From a virus: DNA of 64,000 nt. The stretch spans positions 186,367 to 250,366 of the IMG/VR virus record IMGVR_UViG_3300029288_006769; one strand, 5' to 3'. The translations under genes were made by a program, and so were the position numbers. Shown here one piece after another: positions 7,122-57,642 of the stretch; positions within the stretch are counted from its first letter, which is position 1; the number at the start of each line of letters is the position of its first letter. Under the pieces are notes generated by a model. That model saw only the letters and a program-made list of their open reading frames with translations, was not told the origin of the DNA and did not search any database.

Positions 7122-7292
7122 TTAGTCCATCCTATACAGTTCTTTATCTAGTTCAGCAAAGTCGACAGGTTTGCCTGCAATGCCTTTAGCAAGATTTTTC
7201 GCTGATTCATCTATCATTTGTAGCGTATTTGCCGAAATCTGATCGAGCGCCTGTATTGTAGACTTCACATCGGTTTTTCTGTTATCTTTCAT
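7122..7292 (-). CDS. small ORF translationally coupled to the upstream protease gene
   Basis: 56-aa ORF MKDNRKTDVKSTIQALDQ...; its ATG overlaps the protease stop (ATGA); not in the track because it is under 60 aa. Confidence 0.35.
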   Translation of the reverse strand: MKDNRKTDVKSTIQALDQISANTLQMIDESAKNLAKGIAGKPVDFAELDKELYRMD

Positions 7293-8296: not shown

Positions 8297-8340
8297 ATAG
8301 TCTCCTTTTTGAATGCATAACAAGATGTCTTATAAAAACT

Positions 8341-13346: not shown

Positions 13347-13385
13347 CTCAACAGAAGAGCTGTGTGGCTCCATAAAGGAATTTAA

Positions 13386-39878: not shown

Positions 39879-40734
39879 TTAAAAATTGCTCAAATTCTAA
39901 ATCTTTAAATTCTTGTTTTACGGCTTCAAAATCGATTTGTTGTTTTGTAAAATCCGGTTCGACATCAAGATCATCAATAATTTTTACAAGTTTATATGCT
40001 ATTTTTATATTTTCTAAATTCAATTTTATTTTTTGTTTTAAATCGTCTTTAGCATCCACCACACAACCTTTCCTATTTAACATTTTAAGATTGTCTGGAT
40101 TTTTTAAAATTTCATCTAATGAACCGTTGGCTATTATAAGTTTTGCGGCAGTTTTATCTCCCACACCCTCAATGCCAGGGATATTGTCGGTAGGATCACC
40201 AGTAATCGCCATAGCTTCAACAATTCGATCGGGTGTTATTCCATATTTGTCTATAACATATTGTACATTTTTTATGAGATTATTTGCTAGGGGATGTAGG
40301 ACTTCAACATGTCTTGAAATGAGTTGTTCAAAATCGTGATCCGAACTTATTATAAAAACTTTTTGTCCTTTTTTTCTAGACTTTATTGTAAGTGTCCCTA
40401 TTAAATCATCAGCTTCAATTGTTGGGAAATGGTATTGTTTTATTCCACACCAAGACAAAATCTTTCTAAGTTCGGCAAGCTGTTCATAAAAAGCATCTTC
40501 AAATCTTTTTCTTCCGCCTTTGTAATCAGGGAAAATAGCTTTTCTCCTGTTATTTCCCCCATCCCAAGTAAGGAAAAAAGTAGTATTTTTTCCACCATAT
40601 TCTCTTATTAATTTTCTGATAGAAATGAGAACAGAATAAATTGTTTCTGTTCTTTTTCCTTTACTTGTTGTCAAGGGTTCAAGAGAAAAATAGCAACGAC
40701 ATGCAAGTTGATTTCCGTCAATAATATTTACCAT
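39832..40734 (-). CDS. 5'-3' exonuclease / flap endonuclease (RNase H, Pol I 5' exo family)
   Basis: LTWDGGNNRRK..YKGGRK and IEADDLIG motifs. Confidence 0.8.
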   Translation of the reverse strand: MVNIIDGNQLACRCYFSLEPLTTSKGKRTETIYSVLISIRKLIREYGGKNTTFFLTWDGGNNRRKAIFPDYKGGRKRFEDAFYEQLAELRKILSWCGIKQYHFPTIEADDLIGTLTIKSRKKGQKVFIISSDHDFEQLISRHVEVLHPLANNLIKNVQYVIDKYGITPDRIVEAMAITGDPTDNIPGIEGVGDKTAAKLIIANGSLDEILKNPDNLKMLNRKGCVVDAKDDLKQKIKLNLENIKIAYKLVKIIDDLDVEPDFTKQQIDFEAVKQEFKDLEFEQFLNEFDRWETTFRSQQS

Positions 40735-40746
40735 GTAGCTTTTTAT

Positions 40747-42303
40747 TTAATTTTTTATAGCGTCAACAAAATATTTTGGGAAAAATTTGCTATTTTGTTT
40801 TAAGAAAAACTTGAACTGGCTATCCATTATGTAGATTGTACAAAAATCTTTGTCGTGTCTGACTCCACGTCCAGCAGCTTGTACAAGAGTAAGTGCTGTT
40901 TTCCAATTATACCATTCAGGATCAATTTCCATACGCTGCTTTATTTGTTTGTCGCCCAAAAACATGAATGGGAGTTTTACAATTACAACAAATCTTGCAA
41001 GATCATCTTTTAAATCAATACCTTCGGTCATTGATGGGGTTACAAGAACTTTTGGTTCGTCAGATAACATAAAATTGTTCAATGCTGCTGTTCTTGTAGA
41101 ACTATCATGAAGAATTATGCGTTCTCTGAATTTCAACCCAATATTTTCTTTGATATAGTTGGCAATTCGATATGTATGGCAATGTAAAAGTCCTTTTTCG
41201 GTGTCATGAAAATCTAAAATTTTCTCAATGTCTTGAACTACTTTGGGCAAACTTTCTTCAATATTGTTTTTTCCTAAATTCCCTGATCTTGTAAGAATTA
41301 TTGGTCTTATATCCGGAGAAAACGTCGATGGAACTTGAATGAATTTTGTTTTAGAAACTTCAAGATCTAAATTCCTGCAAAAACTTTCTTTATCTAAAAT
41401 TGTCGCCGACATGAATAATTTCTTTTCAGCATTTTTGAAAAGCAATCTTTGAGCAAAAAAACCGACAGTCAAAGGTTTGAATATAATTGTTTTTGAACGT
41501 AATTTTTCATTAGTTGTTATATCGAAAATCCATTCAACTTTTGTATAACTCTCAAGAAAAACTTTAACTCTTTCTTCTTGACTAGCAAGTCCTTCGAGTT
41601 CTTTTTGAAGATCTGAAATTATTTCTATATCAAGAAATTTATTCTTCAGTTTTTCTGTTACTTCTTTTTTTCGTTCCTTGATTATAGGGACTAGCATTCG
41701 AAGCCACTCTATATATTCATCAAGTTTTTCATAAATTGGTATTTTAGAAGTTACACCCAATTTTGAAAGATAAAGAGATGAAAAACTAAATTCGACAAAA
41801 GACATACATTCATCATCAAGACTATGAGCTTCGTCACATATCAAAAGCTTTCTTAAAGAAAATGTCCCAGTATAATTCGTAATACATAGAAAATATTTAT
41901 AGTTCATCAATGCAACATAAGATTCTACAGCCTGTTGCTTAGCAATTTCATAATAACATTCTGGTTTTATTGGACATTGTTTTGTAGAACAATAAGAATC
42001 TTCACAAGTAAAATTTGCATACAACTTACAAGGATAATTATTACGTCCTTTTAAAACACAAACTCTACCTGAACTATAATCTTTTACATATTGATCCTGA
42101 AGAATTTTTTGTGAAGTCAATAAAAAAGCAGATTTGTAATAAAGACCAAGGCTAATCGCAATGGCACTTTTGCCTGAACCTGTAGGACTTTCCAAAACAA
42201 CATTCTCTATTTCATCTGAATCAAGAGATTGTTGAATATCAAGAATGGTTTCTTTTTGATATGGTCTGAAAGTTTTATGAGGGAAAAAATCTAGAACGCT
42301 CAT
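40747..42303 (-). CDS. DinG/XPD-like Fe-S SF2 helicase
   Basis: Walker A ESPTGSGKS, DEAH box CDEAHSLDD, four-Cys Fe-S cluster insert. Confidence 0.8.
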   Translation of the reverse strand: MSVLDFFPHKTFRPYQKETILDIQQSLDSDEIENVVLESPTGSGKSAIAISLGLYYKSAFLLTSQKILQDQYVKDYSSGRVCVLKGRNNYPCKLYANFTCEDSYCSTKQCPIKPECYYEIAKQQAVESYVALMNYKYFLCITNYTGTFSLRKLLICDEAHSLDDECMSFVEFSFSSLYLSKLGVTSKIPIYEKLDEYIEWLRMLVPIIKERKKEVTEKLKNKFLDIEIISDLQKELEGLASQEERVKVFLESYTKVEWIFDITTNEKLRSKTIIFKPLTVGFFAQRLLFKNAEKKLFMSATILDKESFCRNLDLEVSKTKFIQVPSTFSPDIRPIILTRSGNLGKNNIEESLPKVVQDIEKILDFHDTEKGLLHCHTYRIANYIKENIGLKFRERIILHDSSTRTAALNNFMLSDEPKVLVTPSMTEGIDLKDDLARFVVIVKLPFMFLGDKQIKQRMEIDPEWYNWKTALTLVQAAGRGVRHDKDFCTIYIMDSQFKFFLKQNSKFFPKYFVDAIKN

Positions 42304-42746
42304 AAAAAACCAATATCTTGAACTCTTGCTTTTACTATTTTCGAGAAATAGGAAGGTCTAATCTTTACTATTCTTTTTCGCAATTCTATGATGACGCCAT
42401 CGATATCTGCTAAATCACCATGTTTGATGATTACATGATCCCCAATCTTAAATTCTGTTTGCCTTTGGGCTTTTAATTCTACGTCAGCAACATTCAATTT
42501 CTTGATTTGAGCTGTTGTAAATTTTTGAGGGTGCTTATTAGGACCAAGGAACTTTAATGTTCCCTCTGTAGCTAAAAAACTCTTTGCACTTTGTTGATCG
42601 ATTTCAATAGAACGAATAAAAACATAACCTGACAATTCATTTGATATTGAAATTTCACTGAACGATAATTCTTTTTGTTTCGAACTTAATTGTTCTTTGA
42701 TGAGTTGTTCAAACCCTTGATGAACTAACAATATATACCACGCCAT
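42300..42746 (-). CDS. NusG-like transcription antiterminator paralog (NGN + KOW)
   Basis: WYILLVHQGFEQ NGN start and KOW motif GDHVIIKHGDLADIDGVIIEL. Confidence 0.65.
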   Translation of the reverse strand: MAWYILLVHQGFEQLIKEQLSSKQKELSFSEISISNELSGYVFIRSIEIDQQSAKSFLATEGTLKFLGPNKHPQKFTTAQIKKLNVADVELKAQRQTEFKIGDHVIIKHGDLADIDGVIIELRKRIVKIRPSYFSKIVKARVQDIGFL

Positions 42747-43948
42747 TATTCTTCCAGCTTTGATTTTACTAAATTGACAACATGTCTTTTCATTTTGATG
42801 ACATGTCCTTTTGATCTCTTGTATTTCTTTGCTATATCCTCATCTCCATTTATATCATACTTAATGTTTCGAAGAATTTCTCTATACATAGAATTTCTTA
42901 AATTATCTCTAAGATCTTTTTCCAAGAGAAAAATATCTTCTATACTCATATTATATTGTTTTGCTAAAGCATAGAAAGAATTTTGCATTGTCGATTTGTT
43001 CCGAATTACTAAAAGCATTGCTTGCTTAAGTTCTTCAGGAGCATCTATTTCTTTTAATTCAAACATTTTATTGATATGAGAACAAAGATCCTTTGACATA
43101 TATTCATCTTCAAAATTTATTTGAGGAATCAGAGTTCTTTCGGAAGAAATAACTTCATCCCATGAACATTCCGGATCATCAAGTTCTACAGATTTAATAG
43201 ACGATATTTTTCTTTTTTGAGTTCCTAAAGATTGTAAAACTCTTTTAAAAGCACAGTTTATTACATACCAAGCATAAGTAGAAAAACAGGTATTACAAGC
43301 TATGTCAAACCATTTGCTTACTTGGATGAATAAAGCTGAAACTATATCCTGATAGAAATCATTTTCGGTTCGATCTCTATATTGAGCAAATTTGTGTCTG
43401 TTAAAACGTACAAAACTAATTATTATTTGATCCCATGTCTTTCCTCTTACGCCACGCTGATAGAGAATAATATTGAAAATCTTATTCTTCTCTCTTTGTG
43501 TTGTAGCATTTCTAAAAGCTCCTACAAGAATTCTTTCATCACGATCTTGGGGTTCTTCATTAACTTTAAGTTCGAGTTTTCTTTTAGGTTCTTTTGGGAG
43601 TCTAACTTTCTTTTCTCGTGGTGTTACTATTTTGATGGGAATAGCAGGAGGAATATAAGACGAAGGAACTTCGAACTCAAAATATTTTGAGAATAAATTT
43701 AAAAGTTCTTGTTCTGCATTAATTACGCCTATACATCTCATTTTCCCGAGATGCTTAAGTTTTGCTTCTTCTTCAGTGACTTCTGTGAAATTAGGGCCCC
43801 ATGTTGGATCAAAGGCAAGAAGCTGCACTCTTTTTCCAGAAAAACAAGCCTTTTTCCCAGACACATCACGAAAAATTATAAAATGTTTTGTTATGTCAGG
43901 AGTTATTGACTTGGGCAAAACATTCAAAAATAATTCTGATAATTCCAC
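42746..43948 (-). CDS. sigma-70 family RNA polymerase sigma factor
   Basis: region 2.3-2.4 FSTYAWYVINCAFKRVL and a C-terminal region-4 HTH; GTG start with RBS GAGGAATGT. Confidence 0.7.
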   Translation of the reverse strand: MELSELFLNVLPKSITPDITKHFIIFRDVSGKKACFSGKRVQLLAFDPTWGPNFTEVTEEEAKLKHLGKMRCIGVINAEQELLNLFSKYFEFEVPSSYIPPAIPIKIVTPREKKVRLPKEPKRKLELKVNEEPQDRDERILVGAFRNATTQREKNKIFNIILYQRGVRGKTWDQIIISFVRFNRHKFAQYRDRTENDFYQDIVSALFIQVSKWFDIACNTCFSTYAWYVINCAFKRVLQSLGTQKRKISSIKSVELDDPECSWDEVISSERTLIPQINFEDEYMSKDLCSHINKMFELKEIDAPEELKQAMLLVIRNKSTMQNSFYALAKQYNMSIEDIFLLEKDLRDNLRNSMYREILRNIKYDINGDEDIAKKYKRSKGHVIKMKRHVVNLVKSKLEE

Positions 43949-43954
43949 ACATTC

Positions 43955-44075
43955 CTCACAGTTCTAGCATAGAAGTTCTAGCAATTATTTAAAAAATTAA
44001 ACTGTAAAGGAAAGTTTTGCCAAGCAATTCGGAAGATTCACGTGACATTCTCATACCAACAGCTCCATTCTCATA
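43955..44075 (-). promoter_or_regulatory. direct-repeat cluster upstream of the sigma factor gene
   Basis: AGTTCTAGCA x2 (43960-43969, 43974-43983) and CATTCTCATA x2 plus TCTCATAC (about 44047-44090). Confidence 0.3.
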
Positions 44076-44124
44076 ATAATTATCTCATACATAAAACTAT
44101 AACTATAACACCTTAAAACATAAT

Positions 44125-45249
44125 TCAATGTAGGGCTAATGTAAACACCTTTTGCATCTTTTTTGCATCATCAAGTGCACGATCAAATTCCTCTTTCGTG
44201 CAGTCATCTGGGTCCTTCCCTTCAGGCAACACGAGATTAAAAACAGGGACATCTGTTAAATATTCTTCCATGATCTTTTGTGCAGCTTCTTGGCCCGGAT
44301 TTGATTTATTTCCATTCATATCGATTTTATCGTCATTGTCCAATGCAATATAGATACGTTCGAAATTTTGAACTAACTGTTTCATCTTATATGTATTCAG
44401 ATGACAACTCAAAAGCGCCACTACATTGTATCCAAATCTAATAATTTTCAATGCATCAAAAATACCTTCGCAAATAAAAACTTCTTTTTTGTTTTTTACG
44501 CTTTCATCCCAATTAAAAAACAATCTACTCATTGGCGTACCAAACGGGTAGAGAATCTTTTTATAGAGATACTTGTCAATGATTCTTTGTTTATCCTGTT
44601 TCGAAAGATTCCTTTTTTTCATTATAGCTTTTGCTTTTGCCCATATATCCGACTTACCCGACATATCTCTGGCAGCAAAAGTCACAAGCTTATTCTGTAA
44701 ATAGACAGGTATTATCAATCTGTCATGAAAAATTCTATCGTCAACACAATATCTCATACCATATTTTTTTATGTCTTCTAAACAAACACGTTTTTTTACG
44801 ATATCATAGTATTTTTCTGCTGGTTCGCTTGGCGGGAGTACGACTTCCTTTAATTCATTATTTTCTTCTTCATAACAATCGTTATCGAAGAATTGAAAAG
44901 TCGAATTTTTGACTATAGAAAAAACATCTACAGTTTCATTAATCCCGACTTGAATTTTTGCAAATTCAATTGCTTCCTTTGTAGTTTTAAGACCTTCAAG
45001 ATTTTTTATGAATCTTATGAAGTCTCCACCACCACAAACAAAACAATTGTAGATTCCTGTTTTTTCTTGAATAGAAAATGAAGGTGTTGTGTCATCATGA
45101 AAGGGGCAAGGGCACATAAACTCTCTGCCCTTTTGAGTCCTGTATGTTTTGAACTCTAGATTATAATGTTTAAGAACATTCTCAATTTTAACCCGAGAAT
45201 AAATTTCGTTATAAACTTTCTTATAATTCTCTATCATCATTTTTTGCAC
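44125..45249 (-). CDS. dnaG: DnaG-type DNA primase (CHC2 zinc finger + TOPRIM)
   Basis: CPCPFHDDTTPSFSI zinc finger and TOPRIM EGIFD. Confidence 0.8.
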   Translation of the reverse strand: MQKMMIENYKKVYNEIYSRVKIENVLKHYNLEFKTYRTQKGREFMCPCPFHDDTTPSFSIQEKTGIYNCFVCGGGDFIRFIKNLEGLKTTKEAIEFAKIQVGINETVDVFSIVKNSTFQFFDNDCYEEENNELKEVVLPPSEPAEKYYDIVKKRVCLEDIKKYGMRYCVDDRIFHDRLIIPVYLQNKLVTFAARDMSGKSDIWAKAKAIMKKRNLSKQDKQRIIDKYLYKKILYPFGTPMSRLFFNWDESVKNKKEVFICEGIFDALKIIRFGYNVVALLSCHLNTYKMKQLVQNFERIYIALDNDDKIDMNGNKSNPGQEAAQKIMEEYLTDVPVFNLVLPEGKDPDDCTKEEFDRALDDAKKMQKVFTLALH

Positions 45250-45997
45250 ATGTTTTCTTATATTGACAGAAAAAACAATCCTTTGTTCTCTGATTGAATT
45301 TGGGCTCTTTTAAAAAATCCTTTTTCGAAATTCTTTCGAGCATATTATTGACTTGCCTAAATAAAATCTCAAAATCTTCTTCAGTGCGTTGGGTGAACAA
45401 GATTTCACCATCGATCGGATATGCTAGTGCACCATGTATTGAATCAAGCGAATATTTATATAATTCCCTCACAAAAAAACTATAAAAAGTTAATTGTATA
45501 TTCTTGTCAATTTCTTTTTCTTTACTTTTTGATGTTTTCCAATCAAGACAGACAATCTCGTCATTCGCTAAAAGCATATCTATACGACCTGTAAGATGCA
45601 CATCGTCTAAAAAATGATTAATAAAAGGTATTTTACAATATTTCTCTATTTCAAGAATTTTAAAACTGCTCCAACGACTCTTCATTTTTTTGACGTTTTC
45701 TATTTGCAATCTTCCTTTTGCTATAGAATCTTCAAGTTCCTTTGAATTAGGAAAAGGTAGATTCTTTGCTTCGGTGCAAAAAGCTATAAACAATGAGGGC
45801 CATGCAGCAGAAATTTCGTCAAGACTCAGACCAAATTTGAAATGCAATTCAAGTGCTTTATGGAGTGTAGAACCAAAAGTCGTGAAAAGATATGCTTCAT
45901 CAGGTGTTCTCTCATCTAAAAACTGCCATTTATACATCTGAGAACATCTGAAAAAAGAAGATAAAGATGATGCAGAAACAGTTACTTGTGTTCTCAT
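45221..45997 (-). CDS. PD-(D/E)XK nuclease with C-terminal Cys cluster (Cas4/RecB-like)
   Basis: GRIDML...DWKTSK core and C-terminal CFFCQYKKTC. Confidence 0.6.
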   Translation of the reverse strand: MRTQVTVSASSLSSFFRCSQMYKWQFLDERTPDEAYLFTTFGSTLHKALELHFKFGLSLDEISAAWPSLFIAFCTEAKNLPFPNSKELEDSIAKGRLQIENVKKMKSRWSSFKILEIEKYCKIPFINHFLDDVHLTGRIDMLLANDEIVCLDWKTSKSKEKEIDKNIQLTFYSFFVRELYKYSLDSIHGALAYPIDGEILFTQRTEEDFEILFRQVNNMLERISKKDFLKEPKFNQRTKDCFFCQYKKTCAKNDDREL

Positions 45998-47283
45998 TTT
46001 ACCTCATTCAAAAGAAATTCAATTGTTTTTTCGTTCAAAGCAGCTGTCCGCATCAATTCGAATTGTTGTTTATTAGTTTTTAGTTCTTCCTTGATTTTTG
46101 TCTGACGATCAACATCATGTTTAAGCATACTTGAAATTTGCATTGCATAGGTAACAATTTCATCATCTGTCACCAATATCCCAAAATCTTTTGCAACCTG
46201 TTCGAGTACTAAAGCAGCTTTAATAGACTCTATAGAACGTTGTGTATAATGATCAAAGAAACCCTCTTTAGAAACTTTTTCTTTTGCAATCTGTTCTTCA
46301 GTTTTTCCAATGCGTTTTAAAAACGCATTCCATTCTTTTTCATTTTCTCGATCTATCATTACTTTGGGTATTGGTGTGATATTCGAATTATTGATAACAG
46401 ATAACAGCACTTGCTTTTTAAAAGTTTCTTTTGCATTATTCTCTTTCTCTTCAGCAAATTTAAGTCTTAAATTTTCTTCATACAATTTGATTGTGTCAAA
46501 CCCTTTTGATTTTGCAAATTGTTCATTATATTCAGGAATTATTTTGTCTTTGATTGCTTTAAGAGTAACAGTAAAAATAGCTTTTTTACCAGCTAGTGTT
46601 GTTTCTCTATAATTTGTCGGGAATGTTACAAATATTTGTCTTGTCTCTTCTTTCTTCATCCCAATGAGCTGATCTTCAAAATTGTCTATAAATTGTTTTT
46701 GTCCATTTATGATTTCATTTATTTTTATCTGATAACCTTTAGCAACACCACCCTTAAAAGGCGTTGCTTCACCTTCAAGTCTGCCTTCGAAATCGATTAC
46801 AGCAATATCAAAATTTTCTAATGATTCTTTTTCAGAATCAAGTATGATTTCGCTTTTCTTTACTTCCATTGTTATCTTATCTCTAAATTCATTTTCTGTC
46901 AGTATAGATTCGGGCTTTTCGATCTTGATTGCGTTTAGAACTGGTAAGCTGATCAAAGGTTTTATTTCAGCAACAAATTCGATAGTAAAAGATGATTTTT
47001 TCTTTAAATCACCAAAAAATTTAAAATCAGCAGAAGAAACAATATTGGGTTCTACATTCACAATGTCATGAAAAATTTGATCAACCATAGGTTTATAAAG
47101 TCGTTCAATTCTTAAACGACTTTCAGCAACATCCCGAGGAACATTTCCTTTTCTGAAACCTGGAATCTCTATATTACTTTTTACTTTGTCATAGCATTCT
47201 TTTTTTCTTGTTTCAACATCATCGGGGTCTAATGTCACAATGTATTTCACTGGTGCAGGCATTGCTTCTGTTTTAATGTTCAT
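45994..47283 (-). CDS. tig: trigger factor (ribosome-associated chaperone/PPIase) homolog
   Basis: ribosome-binding signature GFRKGNVP near residue 40, central FKBP-like PPIase region (GG..KG...I..I..G..FI..FE..L.G....ET....V.FP..Y....LAGK.A.F.V.L), 429 aa as in bacterial TF. Confidence 0.8.
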   Translation of the reverse strand: MNIKTEAMPAPVKYIVTLDPDDVETRKKECYDKVKSNIEIPGFRKGNVPRDVAESRLRIERLYKPMVDQIFHDIVNVEPNIVSSADFKFFGDLKKKSSFTIEFVAEIKPLISLPVLNAIKIEKPESILTENEFRDKITMEVKKSEIILDSEKESLENFDIAVIDFEGRLEGEATPFKGGVAKGYQIKINEIINGQKQFIDNFEDQLIGMKKEETRQIFVTFPTNYRETTLAGKKAIFTVTLKAIKDKIIPEYNEQFAKSKGFDTIKLYEENLRLKFAEEKENNAKETFKKQVLLSVINNSNITPIPKVMIDRENEKEWNAFLKRIGKTEEQIAKEKVSKEGFFDHYTQRSIESIKAALVLEQVAKDFGILVTDDEIVTYAMQISSMLKHDVDRQTKIKEELKTNKQQFELMRTAALNEKTIEFLLNEVK

Positions 47284-48734
47284 TATTCCTCCTTGTCTTT
47301 TTCTACAATGGTTGAAGGACCTTCATCGACACGTGAATCATATTTGAATCTCATAATATCAAATTCTTTAATGAAAAACAATTTTGTAAGTTGAGAATCT
47401 CTTGTTTTAGGGAAATAGAGACATGCTGTTTCTTTATCTCCTGTTATACCTATCATGTTGTCAGTGTTATGGCCCAATTTATCTGAAAAAGCAGCATCCA
47501 TAGAATCAACTTCTTTTCCATGCAAATGCCTTTTATGGGATTCTCTATTAAACTGACTTGCTGCAATTATTGGCAATTCTCTACCGCGAGCAAGTAATTT
47601 CAAATCCCATGAAATTACTCCTACAGGATCATCTGTTTTACGTTCACTTGGTGTCATCAGATAAATAGGATCTATGATTAAAAGATGAGCTTTCTTGCTA
47701 GTAACATTTTCAAATGCTGTTATTCTAGAATCAATAAACTGGCTATTACAATTTTGAGGTGCATCAATAAACCATAGAAAATTATCATGTTCTTCTTTTG
47801 TCTTTTTCAACTTACGTTCTAGTAGTTCTACTTCTTCATCGCTCATTAAATGAGGTAGTTTTATTTTATTATATGAAATTTTTGTGATTAAAGAAGTGAA
47901 ACGTGCTCTTTGTTGAGCCATAGGCATTTCAATAGTTACATAAATGACATTATAATTTAATTTGTAAGCATTGTATGCAAAATTCAAAAGCAGAATTGAT
48001 TTTCCCATTCCTGGACGTCCAAGAACTAGAGAAAATTCACCAGGTTGCCAACCACCTGTAGCTTGATCAATTTTTTTATAACCTGTTGGTATTCCTTGAT
48101 ATTTCGAAGGATTTTCGCGTCGTTCCTTTATTTCAGCAACATCTCTTGAAATGTCATGGAGCACATCTTCTTCTAGAACTTTATATTTACCAGTTGTGAG
48201 TAGAATTTTGTTTACAGAATCTTGTATGTTTTGAGCCAATGCCATGGCTTCGTGTTTTTCATCAATAAAATCTTGTTTTAATTGTTCGTTTATTTTAAGA
48301 TTTATGTTGAGAAGATCTCTATAGAAAAATTTCTCTCTCAATTTATCAAACATAGGTTTGAAAGATTTTGCTTCAAACCTATATGAAAAAATCTTTTCAA
48401 GAACTACTTTCTTTTGTTCATATTCTTCAGCTTGCTTATATTTTGCTTTTAATTCATCAAACAAAAAACTCTTTGAGACGCACTCGGAAAAAGAAACAAA
48501 ATTATCTAATAGTTTGCTGAACATCCATTGCTTAAAATCCGACGTAAAAATTTCTTTAGGCAAACCTAAAAATGTAACATAAGAAAGATTCGAATTAATT
48601 TCATCTATGTCTGCTTTATTGTCAAATTCATTGTCAAAAACCAAAAGACGCAATACTTTACATTCAAGTACTACATCGATAAATGGTTTTTGTCCATTGT
48701 CAGTTTGTGTATCAGTTTTTTTTCTTGTTATCAT
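47283..48734 (-). CDS. dnaB: DnaB-family replicative helicase
   Basis: Walker A LVLGRPGMGKS and the RecA-like C-terminal domain. Confidence 0.85.
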   Translation of the reverse strand: MITRKKTDTQTDNGQKPFIDVVLECKVLRLLVFDNEFDNKADIDEINSNLSYVTFLGLPKEIFTSDFKQWMFSKLLDNFVSFSECVSKSFLFDELKAKYKQAEEYEQKKVVLEKIFSYRFEAKSFKPMFDKLREKFFYRDLLNINLKINEQLKQDFIDEKHEAMALAQNIQDSVNKILLTTGKYKVLEEDVLHDISRDVAEIKERRENPSKYQGIPTGYKKIDQATGGWQPGEFSLVLGRPGMGKSILLLNFAYNAYKLNYNVIYVTIEMPMAQQRARFTSLITKISYNKIKLPHLMSDEEVELLERKLKKTKEEHDNFLWFIDAPQNCNSQFIDSRITAFENVTSKKAHLLIIDPIYLMTPSERKTDDPVGVISWDLKLLARGRELPIIAASQFNRESHKRHLHGKEVDSMDAAFSDKLGHNTDNMIGITGDKETACLYFPKTRDSQLTKLFFIKEFDIMRFKYDSRVDEGPSTIVEKDKEE

Positions 48735-49489
48735 AGTCTATCCAGTAAAGATTCCCCAATTATATTTCTATAATCTTCCCCCAATAACTTGACTTCTATT
48801 AAACGCTCTTTGAAATTTGAATAAAGAGCTTCTCCCAACAGGTCTTTATTTGTTTCTAAAGGATGATTTGCTGTTATGATAGTACATAGATCTGAATCAT
48901 CACGTTTAGTAAAAATTTCATCTATATTTGCTCGTTCAGCATCATTTATTTGACTAAATAATCTTCCAATATCGTCAATTACGAAGAACTTGCAATTGTT
49001 CACGACATAAGTAAAGTAAGCTTTTTTATCCTCGTTTTTCCAACCTGCTCTTACAAACTCAATTATTTCTGCAGATCTACTAAAGAAAGCCGAATAATAA
49101 TGTTCAATAGCGATTTTTAAAATGATTATTGCTATTGCTGTTTTGCCTACTCCATGCGACCCGGAAATATAAAGTCCAATTCCTTCTTGAGCAGCTTTAT
49201 CAACTGAATTTATGTATTTCTCAATTTTTTTAATCTGGTCTATATTCGATTCTATAGTTTCTACTTTATTACGTATAGTCTCAAGATCAAATTTAAAATA
49301 TTTTTCAGGTATATTAGCAAGCAAAAAATTCTTTTCGAAAAAATCATCAACAGAACTATAAAAATCTAACCTTTCAACAATTTTTTCATTTCCAAACTTA
49401 GAAATATCTACCATGTGATGAAAATGCGACCAGAATTCATGCCTTCGTGGACTTTCTTGTTTTTTTCTAGAAATCATTGTTGAATCCAT
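48731..49489 (-). CDS. AAA+ helicase loader (DnaC/IstB-like)
   Basis: Walker A SGSHGVGKT and Walker B FFVIDDIG; ATGA overlap with dnaB. Confidence 0.65.
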   Translation of the reverse strand: MDSTMISRKKQESPRRHEFWSHFHHMVDISKFGNEKIVERLDFYSSVDDFFEKNFLLANIPEKYFKFDLETIRNKVETIESNIDQIKKIEKYINSVDKAAQEGIGLYISGSHGVGKTAIAIIILKIAIEHYYSAFFSRSAEIIEFVRAGWKNEDKKAYFTYVVNNCKFFVIDDIGRLFSQINDAERANIDEIFTKRDDSDLCTIITANHPLETNKDLLGEALYSNFKERLIEVKLLGEDYRNIIGESLLDRL

Positions 49490-50361
49490 TCAAAATCTTT
49501 TTTTATCTCTTGTTCTCGTCCATTGTCAATCAATATTTTGCAACCTAAAGCGTACAATCTATTAAGACCTTTAAAATCTTTCATTTTTAAATATGCTTGA
49601 TATGCTTTATTATCTTGAATCTGTCCTGAGGCAATCTTAATTGCTAATTGCTTATTACTTTCTTCAAATTCTTGTTTATATTGTTTCAAATTCAAGGTTT
49701 TAGCATCTTCTTTCTCACTTGTCTTGTCTGATCTCTCTTCCTTGATTCTTCTCATAATTCCATGAATATATGAGGCCGGCTTTTTTGCATAATAACTGGT
49801 AACATAGACATCACAAGTTTTTTCCAAAACAATTTGAGGTACATCAAAAAATGGATCAGTCAAATCTTTAATGTCTTGAAGTTCTACTTTTCCTTTTTCT
49901 CCATATAAAAATTTGACATGTCCAGAGATAAGTTCAGCAATTTTTTCTGATAGTCTTGGGTTCGTGAAACTAGAAACTATTCTATAGATATATTTGTCGA
50001 GATAATCTGTATTACTTCTTTTCCTTCTAATCTTTATTGCATCATCTGTAAGTGTGACTTTAAATTTGTCATTTGTCCCAAGTATAGTCCCAATACCCAA
50101 TTCGTAAGCATTCTGACCGTATGTTCTTTTGACTAGATTCCAGTAGCTTAATTCGCCCCAAGCATATTCAACTCTTTCTTTGTCATCAGAAACAAGAACA
50201 TGTTTTTGAAACACAGACGAAGGTATAGAAATGTCATTGCCCTTAACTTTATTATCAAAATAAAAAAAACAAAAACGTAATAAAGTACAAAAACTATCAG
50301 GACTTAGCAATTTCAAATATTGCTCAAGGAACTCTCTGGGTATTGTTTCCTGAACTTGCAT
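49474..50361 (-). CDS. hypothetical replication-module protein (possibly DnaD-like initiator)
   Basis: position upstream of the loader and helicase; no firm motif. Confidence 0.4.
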   Translation of the reverse strand: MQVQETIPREFLEQYLKLLSPDSFCTLLRFCFFYFDNKVKGNDISIPSSVFQKHVLVSDDKERVEYAWGELSYWNLVKRTYGQNAYELGIGTILGTNDKFKVTLTDDAIKIRRKRSNTDYLDKYIYRIVSSFTNPRLSEKIAELISGHVKFLYGEKGKVELQDIKDLTDPFFDVPQIVLEKTCDVYVTSYYAKKPASYIHGIMRRIKEERSDKTSEKEDAKTLNLKQYKQEFEESNKQLAIKIASGQIQDNKAYQAYLKMKDFKGLNRLYALGCKILIDNGREQEIKKDFEWIQQ

Positions 50362-50375
50362 GTTATTTTATAATA

Positions 50376-50657
50376 TTAATTGTACCCAAGTTTACTTTTT
50401 ATGTAACTTCGTAAATCTATCTCTTGGGCACCTAAAGAAATTGCTTGTTGTCTTTTTGACTGCACAAGATCATAATGAGGGAAATTACGTTTATTTTGAA
50501 ACCATGAACGTCTTAAACCTAATTTACCAGCAAATTCATGCAACTCTTGCACATCATCTGCAAATAAATGGCACCATTTTACGTGCGTGCCATATCTTTG
50601 GGCAATTTGACTGATTTGTTCTTTTATATAGGATGTTGGTTTGTCTACATATATCAT
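50376..50657 (-). CDS. DUF4031-like protein
   Basis: HLFADDVQELHEFAGKLGLRRSWFQ...HYDL pattern. Confidence 0.5.
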   Translation of the reverse strand: MIYVDKPTSYIKEQISQIAQRYGTHVKWCHLFADDVQELHEFAGKLGLRRSWFQNKRNFPHYDLVQSKRQQAISLGAQEIDLRSYIKSKLGYN

Positions 50658-50658
50658 A

Positions 50659-50994
50659 TTACGTAAGGTCTGTCACTCCATCGCCAAATAAAGCAGCTTG
50701 AGTGAATGTATCACCCTTGTCATCATGATAATATAAAATTGTCCCGTCAGGAAATTTATCCGTTTCTATAGGATCAATCCCTACAGCACAAGACTCGACA
50801 TCGAATTTGATAACCCAAGTCTTTAAAGAATCATCATGTTTTGAAACAGTAGTATGAACAAGTCCAACGGATTTACAAGAATCTATTCTCCCATTACTTG
50901 CAATATCTATAATTCTAAGTAATGCGGTGGAAATAATAGAAATCGCTTGTTTGTCAGAAATGTTTGAGGACTTTGAATCTTGGTTCTGATTCAT
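50659..50994 (-). CDS. hypothetical protein
   Basis: 111 aa. Confidence 0.4.
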   Translation of the reverse strand: MNQNQDSKSSNISDKQAISIISTALLRIIDIASNGRIDSCKSVGLVHTTVSKHDDSLKTWVIKFDVESCAVGIDPIETDKFPDGTILYYHDDKGDTFTQAALFGDGVTDLT

Positions 50995-53896
50995 AAATTT
51001 GCATTCGTTTCTTTGAATGACCAGTCAGATATCGTATTCTATCATAAAAATCAACTATTATGGCTTCTTTTTTTTCATTATTTTCAGCTGAAGGATAAGG
51101 TCTTAATGTTCTACCTACACGTTGCAATGACTTGATTAATGATTTGCCCCCACCTGCCATAATAGCAGAACCCAGAGCAGGTATGTCTACACCTTCGTCT
51201 GCCACAGTGTTATGACAAAGAATGCCTTGACCACTAAAAAAATTCTCGCTTTCTTCAACAGAGATGTCATAGACGACATCTCTGTCATAAACTTGCTCTT
51301 CAGTTCTTATGATAGGTAAAATATAGAATTGTCCTTCAATTTCATCTCTCAAATAAGATCTAGAACCCATTTTAACATGTCTACCAAGACCAAACAGATT
51401 GCCTACAACAGAAACTCTAAAAGCATAATTTCTCGTGATAATATCTTTTTGATTTCTTGGTTTTAAATCTGGTGGTACTACACTGTACTTAATTTTATTA
51501 AAACCATTTGCTAGTAGAATGCCTACAACACCATCTGTTAATTCTTTGCTTACAGAACCAAAAACAAATTGATGATCACCATCAAAACTTCCATCTGTTA
51601 AAAAATACCCATATAAAAAAGCCATTTGAATTTGTGTATTACTATTAAAAATATAGTTAGGTACTTTTTTTGTCAATGCTTTACCTATAACTCCTAAAAT
51701 ATCTCTAAATAACATAGAAATAAGTTGACCTCCGAAACAACATCCTCGTCCAGGAGTGACAACAACATCAAGAGATGGAAATAGCAACTTTAAATTTTTC
51801 ACCATTAAATCTACTGTATTTGCTTTTCTACTCTTTGCATTCTTATAAACAAAATGTTCATTAGGTTTTGCTGACAAAAAAAGCCTCCAAGAAGCATTAA
51901 CAGCTCCATCACCAATCAACATTCCACAGATTTCGCTTAGTTCTTTAGAATTATCTAAAAACAGGGGCAAAGAAAATTTTTTCCTACTTCTTCTCCAGTT
52001 GATTGTTGCACTTATTTTCTTATAATCTTTAAACAATAAAATTTTCTCAAAAGTAGTTCTGAATTTACCCTTATAAAATTTTACGTTCTCATTAAACCAC
52101 AAGACAAATGCTTTGTAATACAAAGACTTATTCTCTAATCTTTTCCCAATTTTATAATGAATTTTCTTGTCAAGAAGATTCATTAGATACTTATATTCAG
52201 ATTTTATTTTCCTAATATTTGCTTGTGTTAAATTCAGATTGATTTCTTTTTGATTTCGATCAAGCCAGATTTCAACCTTTCTGTTTTTTAATCTAGAAAA
52301 TTCTTTTACTAAATCAAATTGTTTAATTTTTTTTGAATTTAAGGGCAAATTTGTTGCTACAATAACAGTATTACCTTGTTTAGGCTCTACTTTTTTTTGC
52401 CTATTATCTTCTAATGTAATTAAAGAATGATTTGATGTTACACTTACACATCTTGTCGTTCCAACAGTTGTTCTAAGTATTGGCACATGTTTTTCGTGTC
52501 TAACTACATGAGTAATTTTCTTCCAACAAATTTTATTTTGCCAAAAAGATAATGTTTGAAATTCTGCTTCTATTTGAGTATTCAATGATGTCTCTACAAA
52601 TTCACCTATTCTTATCAAGCTTATTTTTTTGTTTTGATCTTTTATCCAAATAAATTCATCATAAGGCAAACTTGAGCCAACAAGTACCTGAAGTTGCTTT
52701 GTGCGCACTTTATTTAAAAGGTCTTTTCGCATCTCTCCATTAACTTCACCTTGTATAAAAGCAACAGAACCTACTCCCGCCTTGGCTAGCCTCTCACATA
52801 ATATGTCTCCATGTGGTAACCTGGTGACTGTAATCAACACAGACTTGCCTAACTCAAGTAATCGTAGAGTACTATCTATAATCATTTCATTACGAAGGTC
52901 ATTATTGACAATATACTCTTCATATATATTTCTGAAAGACTTTCTGACATATTTGTATTTTGGATGCTCATTAGGATCTAACATATAGATCCAAGGTTGA
53001 ACAAGATATCCTTTATCTATCAAGAAAGATGCACTTATATTGCAAATCTGTCTACCCGAATAAGCATCTAGAACTTTATCTATTGATTTATCACGGTATG
53101 GGGTCGCACTTAACGAATACCTAAAATATGCTGACTGCATTAATTGCATCATTTGAATATAGACAGGCGCAGTAGCGCGGTGACATTCATCACTTATTAC
53201 GACTTCAGCTTCTTGAACGACTTTTCTAATTTCATGTTTTCTTTCAAGAACATGTTTCGAAATTTTTTCTTTAAACATGTTTTCTTCATCAATAGCACTA
53301 TACTTCAAATCAAATGCACTATGTAATGTCTGAACTGTACATACATTGATTTGACGTATATCACAATATCCACCGCCTATTTTCCCGACTTTGATCTTGA
53401 ACATATTCTCAAATTCATCAGCTGTTTGTTCAAGCAAGTCAATAGAATAGACAATAAAAAGAGTTTTCAAATTAAGTTGAGCTACTATTGCTGCAGCAAT
53501 TACTGTTTTTCCACCACCAGTAGCTACTTTTATGACGCCTCGTTCAGCTTTTATTGCACTATGTACAACTTCTTCTTGATAATCTCTTAACTTCTTTGCG
53601 TGCATTTGTAAGGGATCACCAATAGACGGAATAATACGAGTATCAAGTACATCGAAAGAAAAATGACATTCTGATAAAATTCTATCAAGGGTAGAGTAGA
53701 GCCCGGTAGGATAGCGTAATCTCTCACGTTCAAATAATGGAATTTCGAGTTCAAAAGTTTCTTTTCTGAAATTTGAATACTCTTCTCGACTATAAGACAT
53801 TTCTGATTCAATACGTCGAATCAGTTCTGTATTCAGTTTAACATTGGGTTTAAGATGGGTCCATGTATTGTCAATAACAATTTCAAAATCAGCCAT
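50954..53896 (-). CDS. UvsW-like SF2 DNA helicase interrupted by an intein
   Basis: Walker A VATGGGKT, DECH box, motif VI QRVGRTLR; motif V is split as VLVGS / TVADEGVDIP by a 488-aa insert; extein about 492 aa. Confidence 0.8.
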   Translation of the reverse strand: MADFEIVIDNTWTHLKPNVKLNTELIRRIESEMSYSREEYSNFRKETFELEIPLFERERLRYPTGLYSTLDRILSECHFSFDVLDTRIIPSIGDPLQMHAKKLRDYQEEVVHSAIKAERGVIKVATGGGKTVIAAAIVAQLNLKTLFIVYSIDLLEQTADEFENMFKIKVGKIGGGYCDIRQINVCTVQTLHSAFDLKYSAIDEENMFKEKISKHVLERKHEIRKVVQEAEVVISDECHRATAPVYIQMMQLMQSAYFRYSLSATPYRDKSIDKVLDAYSGRQICNISASFLIDKGYLVQPWIYMLDPNEHPKYKYVRKSFRNIYEEYIVNNDLRNEMIIDSTLRLLELGKSVLITVTRLPHGDILCERLAKAGVGSVAFIQGEVNGEMRKDLLNKVRTKQLQVLVGSSLPYDEFIWIKDQNKKISLIRIGEFVETSLNTQIEAEFQTLSFWQNKICWKKITHVVRHEKHVPILRTTVGTTRCVSVTSNHSLITLEDNRQKKVEPKQGNTVIVATNLPLNSKKIKQFDLVKEFSRLKNRKVEIWLDRNQKEINLNLTQANIRKIKSEYKYLMNLLDKKIHYKIGKRLENKSLYYKAFVLWFNENVKFYKGKFRTTFEKILLFKDYKKISATINWRRSRKKFSLPLFLDNSKELSEICGMLIGDGAVNASWRLFLSAKPNEHFVYKNAKSRKANTVDLMVKNLKLLFPSLDVVVTPGRGCCFGGQLISMLFRDILGVIGKALTKKVPNYIFNSNTQIQMAFLYGYFLTDGSFDGDHQFVFGSVSKELTDGVVGILLANGFNKIKYSVVPPDLKPRNQKDIITRNYAFRVSVVGNLFGLGRHVKMGSRSYLRDEIEGQFYILPIIRTEEQVYDRDVVYDISVEESENFFSGQGILCHNTVADEGVDIPALGSAIMAGGGKSLIKSLQRVGRTLRPYPSAENNEKKEAIIVDFYDRIRYLTGHSKKRMQIYESEPRFKVLKHF
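51209..52672 (-). mobile_element. intein with LAGLIDADG homing endonuclease domain, within the helicase gene
   Basis: begins SLPYDEFIWI (block A), block B VTSNHSL, LAGLIDADG motifs ICGMLIGDGAV and LYGYFLTDGSF, ends ILCHN followed by Thr+1; coordinates approximate to a few nt. Confidence 0.7.
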
Positions 53897-54693: not shown

Positions 54694-57642
54694 TCAGCAC
54701 AAGTTGTTCGTGATTATTCTTTCTTCTAAACGGAACAAATCGACAAGAATAGGACTATCTGATGTGTGTATTCCCTTATTACCTATTTGTATCATAATTA
54801 AAAGCTCTCCTGAAACTTTATTTCTGACAAGCAAAGGCATTGCAAATTCAGCATATAAAGTATCTACTAATGGTTCTTCAAAAATTATTTCTAACATTGG
54901 CTGAGACAGGAATCCTCTTTGTGTTGTCTCAGGAGTAGCAGGAACTAAGTAATCGGTATCAACCCATAAACGTCCTCCACCATGATAACCATAAACATCA
55001 TAAGAAGCAAACATCCAAGTATCAGTAGAAAAGCGTTTTCTTCCACCACCTGTGATTTCTATAACAGTGCCATTTCTCAAATAATCATTGAATGAACCAG
55101 GTAATTTTGGAGACAAAGGAGTGAACATTAATGATGATGTACCAGTAATTCCTGTCGTATCTATTACACCACCCCCTGTACCATTATTAAAGAAAACACC
55201 ATGTTCTCTCTTACAAACTAATGACAAATTCTGATTACCTATAGAGCTACCTTGATAAGGTGAATAAGAGTAAATCAGTTTTATTTGTGCTCCATCATGT
55301 GGTGCTCCCAAATAGTCACAGTCGATCCAGACACGATCTCTATTCGACATTGTAGTGATATATCCTGTGTTTGTAGACTCAGTACAATCAATAATCAGAC
55401 CGCCAATATCATATCCAGCTCCCGCACTCAATCTCACTTTCGTTCTTGTTCCTGCCCATTTGAACTGTGAAACTGTCGCTCCCACAGGTATTTCCCATTG
55501 AACTCCATTCGAATTATAAAGACTTATCCTCGAACCTATGGTACCACTTGTTGTCGCTCTATGCTCTAGCACATAGCTCAAAGGTTGACCCTGATAAATG
55601 TAACCAAGTAACTCTATTTCAGAACCAGGACCTGCAGGTATGTATTGTAAAGAAGTCAAAGACCCAATAAAATAATCTGCACTAACTAAAATTTTATTTG
55701 CTTCCAAATCTGAAACTTGGATTCTAGAAACAATATTCTGCATTGCAAGTTCGGTTCCACCAGTAGAAGATGTATAGACACCACGTAAATGCTGCAATGG
55801 ATAAGGTACATATATTGTTTTTGTTGTGACATTTAGTGTTTCTACTTCTAAAGCTCTTTGTGAACCATTTTTTGATGTAGTAGTTTGGATCAAAGGTGAA
55901 ATACGAACCTGTTTCCTTGCTCGAACAGATTCAGTCTCTGTGTAAGTTTGTGCATCTGTTATATTCTCAAATGGGTGTTCAAACAAATCTTGGAATCTTG
56001 TAGATTCTGTCTTGATATTCTGTCCTCTTACAACAACACCATTAGAAGTAGGAAATGATGATGCATTAGCATAGAGCACTCTAAACAAATCGTCCTGAAC
56101 ATTTGTTATACCCTGACCTGCAGGTATTTCAGTATCATAATAAACCCAAATATCATAATTTGTTCCAACCCAAATTCCAGTACTCATCGAAAAAATTGCT
56201 TGATTTGTATTTAGATTAGACCATGTACCCGTTATAACAGTTTTCAAGTGGTCTTCTAAATAAACTCTTGGTGTTCCCTTAATTATTGTTCCTGAAGGGT
56301 ATTTAGCAGTGACATGAACAACTATAGTGTTTCCTACAGCCCAGTTCCCAGTACCTGAACCTCTATAAACATCAAGTTCTACACCAGTTGTACTAACTGA
56401 AACACTCGCAAAAATATCAGATTGTTGTGTAATAGCATCAGACCAATATATTCTCTTACCACTTGGACCTACATTACCATACAAATCTGTATATCCAAAT
56501 ATATGCGTGTCTGAAATTGCATCATATGTAAGTTCTTTAATTCTATTTTGTCTTAATTCTCCCCTAAAAAATTTGTCAAGATTTTGCTCTAACAGTTTAT
56601 GATAATTCCAACCAGAAAAAGAAACCTTTTGTCTAAGATCTATTATATCAGTTGCATCAATGCCATCATGAAATTTTCCATCTGGTCTATCTGAAACAAG
56701 TGCTGATAAAACAGCTGAATTTCCAAGTTGATTATAAAGAGCTGTCAAATCATCACCACCAGTATCGCCCCAAAGATTTGTAGGTCTTCTATAAATTTTA
56801 AACATTGGAATAGCATAAGAATAACCATCTACAGTTTGTAATGCAATTTGAGAAGCTTCATTTCCAAATCCTGCTCTCCACAAACCGACATCACCTAATT
56901 CATGAATCATATTGGTAAAATTGTAACTTGCTACTTGTGATACTGCAGCAGCACCCTGAGCTCTTACATTAGTGTCATCAAATCCATAAGAATCTGTACT
57001 CATAAAATCTACATTTGAAACTACTCTGATTCTATATTGAACTTGAACTCTTTCTGATGTTTCTTCATCAAAAACTGTGTCTATAGAGTCATCAACTAAA
57101 TTTGTTCCACCAAATTGTACATTACCAAATTTGTAGATATTATCTGCGTCCGGTTTATTTTGAGCAATTGGAAGATTGTTCTCATCTCTAGCTCTAAGCT
57201 GTGCTCTCCAAACTTCAAGAAAAACAAAATCCCAACGTGCTGCACTTCCAGCAGGTGAAAGAGTGATTTGATTTAAAATTGTATCAGTGTAATTTACTCC
57301 TCCTATTAAAACAGGGTATCCATTAACGACAGCATTCGGAATAACAGCTTCTTGATTATCTTCTTGGGCATAAAATCTAATCGTATTTGCAATTCCACAA
57401 TTTGTGCTGCTCTGATTTTTCCCAAGAGATAACCACCCGCTTGGGATATTAGATTTTATTAAATTGGAAACTGTGTTTCCTGCAACATCATTTAACAAAT
57501 TCCATTCAGAATCTAATGCAGCTTTACCTGTTCGCCATATTACATTTGAAAAGTTTCTGAAATTTGCTTGTAAAGTCCTGCTTACAATTTCTTCTGAAGG
57601 AGTTCTTTTAAATACACCATAATTATTAGTTCCATTATCCAT
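54694..57642 (-). CDS. large virion structural protein (tail fiber or baseplate-like)
   Basis: 982 aa, beta-rich Gly/Ser/Thr/Asn composition typical of phage fibers. Confidence 0.5.
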   Translation of the reverse strand: MDNGTNNYGVFKRTPSEEIVSRTLQANFRNFSNVIWRTGKAALDSEWNLLNDVAGNTVSNLIKSNIPSGWLSLGKNQSSTNCGIANTIRFYAQEDNQEAVIPNAVVNGYPVLIGGVNYTDTILNQITLSPAGSAARWDFVFLEVWRAQLRARDENNLPIAQNKPDADNIYKFGNVQFGGTNLVDDSIDTVFDEETSERVQVQYRIRVVSNVDFMSTDSYGFDDTNVRAQGAAAVSQVASYNFTNMIHELGDVGLWRAGFGNEASQIALQTVDGYSYAIPMFKIYRRPTNLWGDTGGDDLTALYNQLGNSAVLSALVSDRPDGKFHDGIDATDIIDLRQKVSFSGWNYHKLLEQNLDKFFRGELRQNRIKELTYDAISDTHIFGYTDLYGNVGPSGKRIYWSDAITQQSDIFASVSVSTTGVELDVYRGSGTGNWAVGNTIVVHVTAKYPSGTIIKGTPRVYLEDHLKTVITGTWSNLNTNQAIFSMSTGIWVGTNYDIWVYYDTEIPAGQGITNVQDDLFRVLYANASSFPTSNGVVVRGQNIKTESTRFQDLFEHPFENITDAQTYTETESVRARKQVRISPLIQTTTSKNGSQRALEVETLNVTTKTIYVPYPLQHLRGVYTSSTGGTELAMQNIVSRIQVSDLEANKILVSADYFIGSLTSLQYIPAGPGSEIELLGYIYQGQPLSYVLEHRATTSGTIGSRISLYNSNGVQWEIPVGATVSQFKWAGTRTKVRLSAGAGYDIGGLIIDCTESTNTGYITTMSNRDRVWIDCDYLGAPHDGAQIKLIYSYSPYQGSSIGNQNLSLVCKREHGVFFNNGTGGGVIDTTGITGTSSLMFTPLSPKLPGSFNDYLRNGTVIEITGGGRKRFSTDTWMFASYDVYGYHGGGRLWVDTDYLVPATPETTQRGFLSQPMLEIIFEEPLVDTLYAEFAMPLLVRNKVSGELLIMIQIGNKGIHTSDSPILVDLFRLEERIITNNLC

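Follow-up and report, generated by a model that had tools for sequence, protein, structure and literature searches.

The window analysed here, a stretch of 64,000 nucleotides at positions 186,367 to 250,366 of the IMG/VR virus record IMGVR_UViG_3300029288_006769, encodes on its minus strand a full-length trigger factor (TF) of 429 amino acids (aa), embedded in the replication genes of a huge phage. The protein itself is an ordinary TF, that is, a viral member of a known family and not a new kind of system; new are its conserved placement within a replication operon and the old phage-specific lineage to which sequence comparisons assign it. With a probability of about 0.62, we propose that the gene specifies a working phage TF orthologue, vertically inherited, which would dock on host ribosomes and fold or hold nascent phage chains.

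Domains, docking loop and predicted fold

The gene and the parts of its product are arranged as follows, the central domain being a peptidyl-prolyl isomerase (PPIase) of the FKBP type:

45994..47283, minus strand: TF gene, 429 aa (ATG at 47283..47281, TGA at 45996..45994; stop included)
46873..47283, minus strand: N-terminal ribosome-binding domain, aa 1-137 (Pfam Trigger_N, 64.5 bits; cut-off 22.2)
47137..47160, minus strand: signature loop GFRKGNVP, aa 42-49 (mapped by phmmer alignment onto G43-P50 of E. coli TF)
46558..46827, minus strand: FKBP-type PPIase domain, aa 153-242 (Pfam FKBP_C, 46.4 bits; cut-off 21.1)
46009..46494, minus strand: C-terminal chaperone ("arms") domain, aa 264-425 (Pfam Trigger_C, 65.1 bits; cut-off 22.7)

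The open reading frame (ORF) occupies exactly the coordinates at which the original prediction had placed a full-length TF with a central FKBP-type PPIase domain, and a plus-strand reading of the same interval runs into stop codons throughout. The search with the three Pfam profiles, set beforehand as a possible refutation, returned significant matches to all of them; that to Trigger_C spans the full 162-position profile, and the C domain is helical in the AlphaFold2 model. Furthermore, the NCBIfam equivalog TIGR00115 "tig" was matched with 239.7 bits (cut-off 180.2; E 5e-71; aa 12-425 against positions 3-410 of 410), and the E-values rule out that the Pfam and TIGR00115 matches arose by chance. 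E. coli TF (1w26) was aligned by phmmer to aa 14-427 (E 2e-27), and phrog_26774 of PHROGs v4, a family annotated there as of "unknown function", was matched end to end, with aa 15-429 aligned to positions 16-420 of its 435-position profile (E 7.5e-41).

The canonical ribosome-docking loop, likewise part of the original prediction, proved to be conserved: in an alignment of 49 sequences, comprising 26 phage-clade members and 23 bacterial TFs, the residues G42, F43, R44 and G46 are invariant. The motif G[FY]RxG is kept in 39/40 members of the clade described below and in 14/14 members of the wider phage group, a retention that argues for selection on ribosome docking by the phage TF, as far as can be read from sequence. 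In the PPIase domain, F165, F176, Y184, I199, F202, Y225 and F237 align with E. coli F168, F177, F185, I195, F198, Y221 and F233, which, from the mutagenesis literature on this domain, we take to form the FKBP hydrophobic pocket. Most of these pocket residues, including F176, F202, Y225 and F237, are invariant in the same 49 sequences. The clade is also marked by features of its own, namely a 5-residue insertion near N189 in the PPIase domain and the invariant residues F103, W318 and K339.

An AlphaFold2 model built from this alignment reached a mean predicted local distance difference test score of 87.1 and a predicted template-modelling score of 0.66, without a disordered segment. Foldseek matched it to full-length E. 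coli TF (1w26_A; E 6.5e-22, template-modelling (TM) scores of 0.60/0.59 over 437 columns) and to full-length Thermotoga TF (3gty_X; TM 0.59/0.61), and these values of ~0.6 are limited by inter-domain flexibility. The predicted model shows the three-domain "dragon" fold that had been anticipated, in which the arms of the C domain form the cradle. Mean pairwise identities in the phage clade vs bacterial TFs are 0.43 vs 0.52 for the N domain, 0.63 vs 0.63 for the PPIase domain, and 0.41 vs 0.42 for the C domain; since these lie near the bacterial values, all domains seem to be held under similar constraint, with none of them decaying. The protein thus possesses all the sequence and structure features that define a TF.

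Lineage, operon and viral genome

A word-indexed search recovered 33 clusters at 36-100% identity, followed by a clean break to bacterial TFs at ~31%. The same gap appeared when 1.84 billion representatives were searched exhaustively with phmmer, clade members scoring at least 234 bits and ordinary TFs ~150 bits. Among 185,579 GTDB species genomes there was no clade member, and the best matches in that collection were only 25-34% identical and scattered over Ureaplasma, Rickettsiales, Campylobacterota, cyanobacteria and Selenomonadaceae. In a neighbour-joining tree of 209 TFs, the 40 clade members were monophyletic with a bootstrap of 95/100, and they joined 14 further sequences with 91% support; the tree is distance-based and its bacterial sample is skewed to best matches, which makes the deep rooting unreliable. 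The question raised beforehand, whether the protein groups with a host clade or a phage-specific one, is hence answered by the tree in favour of the latter. Four of the 14 sister sequences were examined, and all stand in phage-like replication modules, two of them (L026, L029) in the order DnaC-DnaB-...-TF-PD-(D/E)XK-...-NAD ligase and two (L025, L031) in the order AAA-TF-...-Pol III alpha; the Pol III alpha of L031 also bears an intein. As a control, the best match outside the clade (P0036) lies in a tig-clpP-clpX-lon context. A recent capture from a host is ruled out by the lack of a close cellular homologue together with the monophyly of the clade. We conclude from the sequences that the TF has apparently been inherited vertically within the huge-phage clade and represents an old phage-specific TF lineage.

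Within the window, the gene sits where it had been predicted, between a Cas4-like nuclease and the replicative helicase:

48731..49489, minus strand: DnaC/IstB-like helicase loader (IstB_IS21 39.5 bits; phrog_50 105.2 bits), with a 4-nt overlap with dnaB
47283..48734, minus strand: DnaB-type replicative helicase, upstream of TF (DnaB_C 109.9 bits; phrog_19 203.9 bits)
47288..47294, minus strand: Shine-Dalgarno sequence AAGGAGG, read from the sequence, 4 nt before the TF ATG and inside the 3' end of dnaB
45994..45997, minus strand: ATGA overlap of the TF stop TGA with the nuclease ATG, read from the sequence
45221..45997, minus strand: PD-(D/E)XK/Cas4-like nuclease, downstream of TF (PDDEXK_1 85.8 bits; Cas_Cas4 28 bits; phrog_69 exonuclease)
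44125..45249, minus strand: DnaG-type primase (Zn_ribbon_DnaG 62.1 bits plus Toprim domains; phrog_47 163.9 bits)

The DnaB stop TAA (47285..47283) overlaps the TF ATG by 1 nt (TAATG), a GAGG at 46002..46005 precedes the nuclease start by 4 nt, and the nuclease and primase genes share 29 nt, at the end of the former and the start of the latter; the nuclease carries a CxxCx5C cysteine cluster at its C-terminus. Over 42000..51500, promoter-like sites were no commoner than in shuffled sequence, and a scan of the same block revealed no convincing internal terminator. Judged by this arrangement, the TF appears to be translated within a coupled loader-helicase-TF-nuclease-primase unit.

By tblastn of the window proteins, the same gene order was found in six distinct related genomes (L001, L002, L004, L006, L009 and L010), and runs from a 982-aa protein through helicase, loader, DnaB, TF, nuclease, primase, a 400-aa protein of unknown function, a NusG-like protein, helicase, 5'-3' exonuclease and SSB to RecA. 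Identities to the window proteins are:

L001: TF 56%, DnaB 81%
L006: TF 58%, DnaB 75%
L002: TF 49%, DnaB 76%
L004: TF 43%, DnaB 62%
L009: TF 42%, DnaB 53%
L010: TF 35%, DnaB 47%

As the identity of TF drops broadly in step with that of DnaB, the TF has diverged together with the replication module, and in these six genomes it has done so faster than the neighbouring genes. The nuclease adjoins TF in all six, in L026 and L029, and in the phage BM_PHAGE_CIR_35_55. An assembly chimera is ruled out by synteny that is kept across samples. Neither clpP nor clpX was found near the phage TFs in the window or in ten related loci, and a link to ClpXP through gene neighbourhood is therefore unsupported.

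Several further members of the block deserve mention. The 400-aa protein (42746..43948, minus strand) has no Pfam match and occurs in every relative at 26-63% identity; directly downstream of it lies the NusG-like protein (42300..42746, minus strand; PF02357, 32.6 bits). The two genes invariably come after that for the primase, and their products may constitute a pair of transcription factors. The 982-aa protein (54694..57642, minus strand), which has neither a Pfam nor a PHROG match, invariably opens the replication block on its upstream side; its identity is 43-65% in relatives and falls to 32% in L026, a more distant locus. A ResIII/SNF2-type helicase of 980 aa (50954..53896, minus strand) is split by an intein that contains a LAGLIDADG homing endonuclease (Intein_splicing at aa 423-896, LAGLIDADG_3 at aa 757-823); its homologues in L002 and L006 are inteinless and ~490 aa long, and those in L001 and L004 contain an intein.

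That the window derives from a virus is well supported, although the case is not formally complete. It is AT-rich (30-37% G+C), and all of its 57 substantial ORFs lie on one strand. Besides the genes listed above, it encodes UvsX/RecA, SSB-like, SbcC-like and SbcD-like proteins, RuvC, a 5'-3' exonuclease and two further helicases, one with an intein; judged by sequence, the recombination and replication gene set around TF (UvsX/RecA, SSB, SbcCD-like) is T4-like. A 734-aa protein (31282..33486, minus strand) matches phrog_2426 at 407 bits and has homologues of ~25% identity in ~500 large myoviruses (Ackermannviridae-like, Rhizobium and Klebsiella phages), where they are variously labelled as vWFA-domain, tail or hypothetical proteins. 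The exact product of ORF 613..2085 is recorded on a JGI contig of 422,226 bp, of which ~2.3 kb past the window was read; an exact look-up of the 1531-aa protein near the other edge found no record. Relatives of the TF reside on contigs of 424-427, 192, 141 and 116 kb; the 422-kb contig and those of 424-427 kb exceed the 200-kb size limit of huge phages. An IMG/VR scan with the clade alignment yielded five viral contigs (uncultivated viral genomes) of 43-195 kb, and a scan of the same collection with the single window TF gave no match.

A sixth IMG/VR contig, L030 (211 kb), contains a homologue of the 1531-aa protein with an adjoining tail module, including Baseplate_J (PF04865, 61.3 bits; phrog_6, 77.8 bits) and the tail protein phrog_1608. 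Over 5863 bp it overlaps, at 100% identity, L001, the locus that carries TF in the 424-kb relative, so that Baseplate_J and TF stand ~27 kb apart on one molecule in that genome. The window probably belongs to a clade of huge (~420 kb), contractile-tailed phages. The 1531-aa protein (59031..63626, minus strand) bears CHB_HEX_C/Fn3-associated repeats; its L030 homologue, of 2664 aa (L030 141..16507), comes after Baseplate_J and giant PKD/GLUG/Ig-repeat proteins. Both are probably part of a tail-fibre or adhesin module that abuts the replication module.

Deposited phage sequences contain no close counterpart. Megablast of window positions 40000..52000 against 50,697 deposited phage records gave no match, and tblastn of the TF against the same records hit 29 of them with at most ~33% identity over long matches, the single match of 42% spanning only a quarter of the protein. 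Four of these hits (H1, H7, H9, H17) were checked as candidate phage TFs and rejected, as all 4/4 proved to be bacterial tig-clp fragments. In the INPHARED records concerned (OR844993.1, MT835536.1, MT835503.1 and CAKLQH020000005.1; L033-L036), tig is followed by clpX, with clpP ahead of clpX in 3/4; three of the four are flagged UNVERIFIED, and one has metX, leuA and a TonB receptor nearby. TF matches in deposited "phage" records hence need caution. One clade member on a 91-kb contig (P0006) bears the NCBI label "MAG: trigger factor [Candidatus Nanoarchaeia archaeon]", from a metagenome-assembled genome (MAG). To our knowledge, archaea do not possess a TF, and the label is for this reason most likely a binning error in which a huge-phage contig was placed in a DPANN MAG.

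Proposed role and alternatives

In the model that we favour, the phage TF would be produced along with the replication proteins in the early or middle phase of infection; co-expression with the replisome genes is suggested by the TAATG and ATGA overlaps, the strong AAGGAGG and promoter-like sites that do not exceed chance level. Its conserved loop would dock it on uL23 at the exit tunnel of the host ribosome, where, without need of ATP, it might act on nascent phage polypeptides as a holdase/foldase. Through a long infection, it could supplement or replace the host TF, alongside the phage tmRNA (transfer-messenger RNA), the NusG-like protein and a sigma-like factor. Large multidomain phage proteins would be the likely clients, and products of 1531, 982 and 980 aa are encoded in the window and of up to 2664 aa in relatives. 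That the phage would directly manipulate how nascent chains fold on host ribosomes, as the original prediction had read from the gene, is something that we infer from the conserved docking loop. The prediction had also invoked the tmRNA, the sigma factors and a NusG paralog; besides the NusG-like gene mentioned above, two of the features concerned are:

13383..13781, minus strand: tmRNA, complete (Rfam RF00023, 147 bits, model positions 1-374)
25564..26268, minus strand: sigma-70 region-4 protein (domain match)

Although these genes exist (RF00023, PF02357 and sigma-70 region-4), the "extensive takeover" of host gene expression that had been deduced from them exceeds what a 64-kb window shows. 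According to ARAGORN, the tmRNA tag is unusually long, with 26 aa (ANNYAVKFALAFANNVRLGVANSVVA), and its end is not the usual ALAA-type degron.

Several observations weigh against our model. A general co-translational role does not explain the fixed place of TF among replisome genes instead of translation or late structural genes. The faster evolution of TF relative to its neighbours would fit a promiscuous chaperone, but would equally fit relaxed constraint. In GWD1_PHAGE_CIR_38_79, one of the huge phages of Al-Shayeb et al. (PMC7162821), the TF has no GFR motif (PGSW), and since this copy has lost it, ribosome docking would not be universal among phage TFs. Finally, genes for capsid or terminase did not turn up in the 64-kb window, nor did any for capsid, portal or terminase in the relatives, where ~10 kb around each anchor was read.

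The main rival to this model is a protein dedicated to the replisome: mainly off the ribosome, or on those ribosomes that translate its own operon, it would help to assemble or remodel the replication machinery, with the helicase-loader complex, the Cas4-like nuclease, the primase and Pol III alpha as candidate clients. The arrangement DnaB-TF-nuclease recurs in every clade member compared, TF is translationally coupled to both neighbours, and the sister lineages place it by DnaB and the nuclease (L026, L029) or by Pol III alpha (L025, L031). An analogy is offered by phage lambda, which uses the host DnaK/DnaJ to free DnaB from lambda P. Another comes from Thermotoga TF, which binds folded ribosomal protein S7 (PDB 3gty); the title of this entry, a full-length structural match of our model, names "folding and assembly activities". 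In two of the huge phages of Al-Shayeb et al., moreover, TF has DnaE/Pol III alpha and a Cas4-like nuclease as neighbours, and the GWD1 copy is still retained beside DnaE despite the loss of its docking motif. We nonetheless consider a replisome-dedicated chaperone unlikely, as the docking loop is kept throughout all but one of the clade members and the entire wider group, and adjacency of phage genes often reflects the timing of expression and not a physical partnership. A broader version, in which huge-phage TFs were recruited as dedicated assembly chaperones of the replication module, either ribosome-tethered or free, and folded and assembled the helicase, loader, Cas4-like nuclease, primase and polymerase during their translation from the coupled operon, strikes us as rather doubtful too; such a dedicated role would explain why TF is fixed by DnaB, PD-(D/E)XK or Pol III alpha in several deeply diverged lineages.

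A role in proteolysis or ribosome rescue has to be weighed as well, in which the phage TF, together with the phage tmRNA and host ClpXP, would steer the degradation of nascent or tagged proteins, and might shield phage proteins or hasten the turnover of host proteins. It draws on the complete tmRNA in the same window, on the typical linkage of bacterial tig to clpP-clpX, and on a functional cooperativity of TF and ClpXP reported in the literature (PMC7804408). Given that clpP and clpX are missing from the window and the related loci, that the tmRNA lies 32 kb from TF in a separate operon, and that no sequence feature is specific to such a role, we regard it as improbable. The possibility that the gene is not viral at all, but belongs to a megaplasmid, a reduced cellular genome or a chimeric assembly, or is a recent host tig passenger, could appeal to the filing of P0006 under a Candidatus Nanoarchaeia archaeon MAG, to the existence of TF-bearing megaplasmids (Hodor, PMC12934698), to the window's lack of a capsid or terminase gene, and to the bacterial nature of the four matches checked in the deposited phage collection. 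It is, however, largely refuted, and to us highly improbable: the same synteny occurs in six genomes from different samples, five relatives are IMG/VR viral contigs, a relative carries the Baseplate_J/tail module on the TF molecule, and the T4-like gene set is accompanied by a phrog_2426 protein common to Ackermannviridae-type phages. Furthermore, the GTDB species genomes contain no clade member, with a best cellular identity of 25-34%, and the Hodor TF stands in a different context (sortase, SecYEG).

Other genes of the window and comparison with known systems

Outside the replication block, the window encodes several accessory functions:

613..2085, minus strand: SPFH/flotillin protein (Band_7, 96.9 bits)
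5918..6592, minus strand: YhhN-family membrane protein, a cell-like accessory gene
7289..8323, minus strand: trypsin/Nal1-like serine protease (phrog_20754, 227 bits)
11471..12313, minus strand: PHROG "transposase" (phrog_10081)
21031..22299, minus strand: TnpB/Cas12f-like OrfB_IS605 protein (PF07282, 38.4 bits; PF01385, 33.3 bits; phrog_506)
28128..28733, minus strand: NYN-domain RNase (123.5 bits)

The flotillin, YhhN, serine protease and NYN-domain genes are all of a cell-like kind. The OrfB_IS605 protein and the phrog_10081 gene look like mobile elements within the phage genome. Just past the left edge of the window, in L027/L028, a prepilin-type N_methyl protein is encoded. Of the 57 minus-strand ORFs with 100 aa or more, 21 are preceded by a Shine-Dalgarno core in the form of a 4-mer (background 8%) and 10 by a 5-mer (background 1.3%). 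To judge from these sequences, the host probably uses Shine-Dalgarno-led initiation, and this enrichment argues against a host of the Bacteroidota type.

The translation-related genes described so far from huge phages (PMC7162821) include those for initiation, elongation and termination factors, for ribosomal proteins and for peptide deformylase, as well as tmRNA genes. The main text of that study, which catalogues the translation genes of huge phages, makes no mention of TF or chaperones; its supplementary GenBank data nevertheless hold coding sequences auto-annotated as trigger factor in 11 files. These include full-length TF-like coding sequences on circular huge-phage genomes, which, like the window TF, lie beside replication genes. 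In GWD1_PHAGE_CIR_38_79, TF stands next to a split DnaE and, unlike the window TF, no longer has the GFR motif. In BM_PHAGE_CIR_35_55, TF keeps PGFRPG and has a Cas4-like nuclease as its immediate neighbour, with Pol III alpha and SbcC close by. Both are 22-24% identical to the window TF and have their best matches outside its clade, and may represent separate acquisitions or a very deep divergence.

Full-text literature searches returned no paper discussing a phage-encoded TF, a megaplasmid preprint being the sole relevant match, and BFVD, a collection of predicted viral protein structures, held no TF-like fold at E <= 0.001; the phage home of TF and its conserved position in a replication operon have apparently not been discussed in print. 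Within the literature searched and BFVD, TF is the first class of ribosome-associated chaperone found in viruses, and a conserved phage-specific TF would add co-translational folding at the exit tunnel to the translation repertoire of huge phages. Intriguing questions follow: whether the phage protein competes with host TF for uL23, which nascent chains it serves, and why it became locked into the replisome operon. In addition, phrog_26774, which may have been built partly from bacterial fragment records, can be relabelled from "unknown function" to trigger factor.

The preprint just mentioned (2026, PMC12934698) describes the Hodor conjugative megaplasmids, whose TF is proposed to chaperone the element's giant secreted proteins. 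The likeness lies in a TF carried on a very large mobile element. Hodor elements are plasmids, however, and their TF shares its transcript with a class B sortase, in the vicinity of SecY/SecG/SecE, instead of with replication genes. Other phages are also known to encode chaperones, such as the co-chaperonin gp31 of T4 and the GroEL-like chaperonins of phages EL, OBP and AR9. In all these cases the phage brings its own folding helper, but those proteins act post-translationally within the GroEL/GroES system, whereas TF belongs to a ribosome-associated, ATP-independent class. The closest resemblance is to bacterial TF (TIGR00115/HAMAP MF_00303), with which the window protein shares domain order, length (429 vs 432 aa in E. 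coli), the position of the GFRxGxxP loop, the FKBP pocket and the overall fold (1W26, 3GTY). It differs in being phage-encoded and 24-34% identical to any cellular TF found, and, instead of the typical tig-clpP-clpX neighbourhood, it resides in a DnaC-DnaB-TF-nuclease-primase operon.

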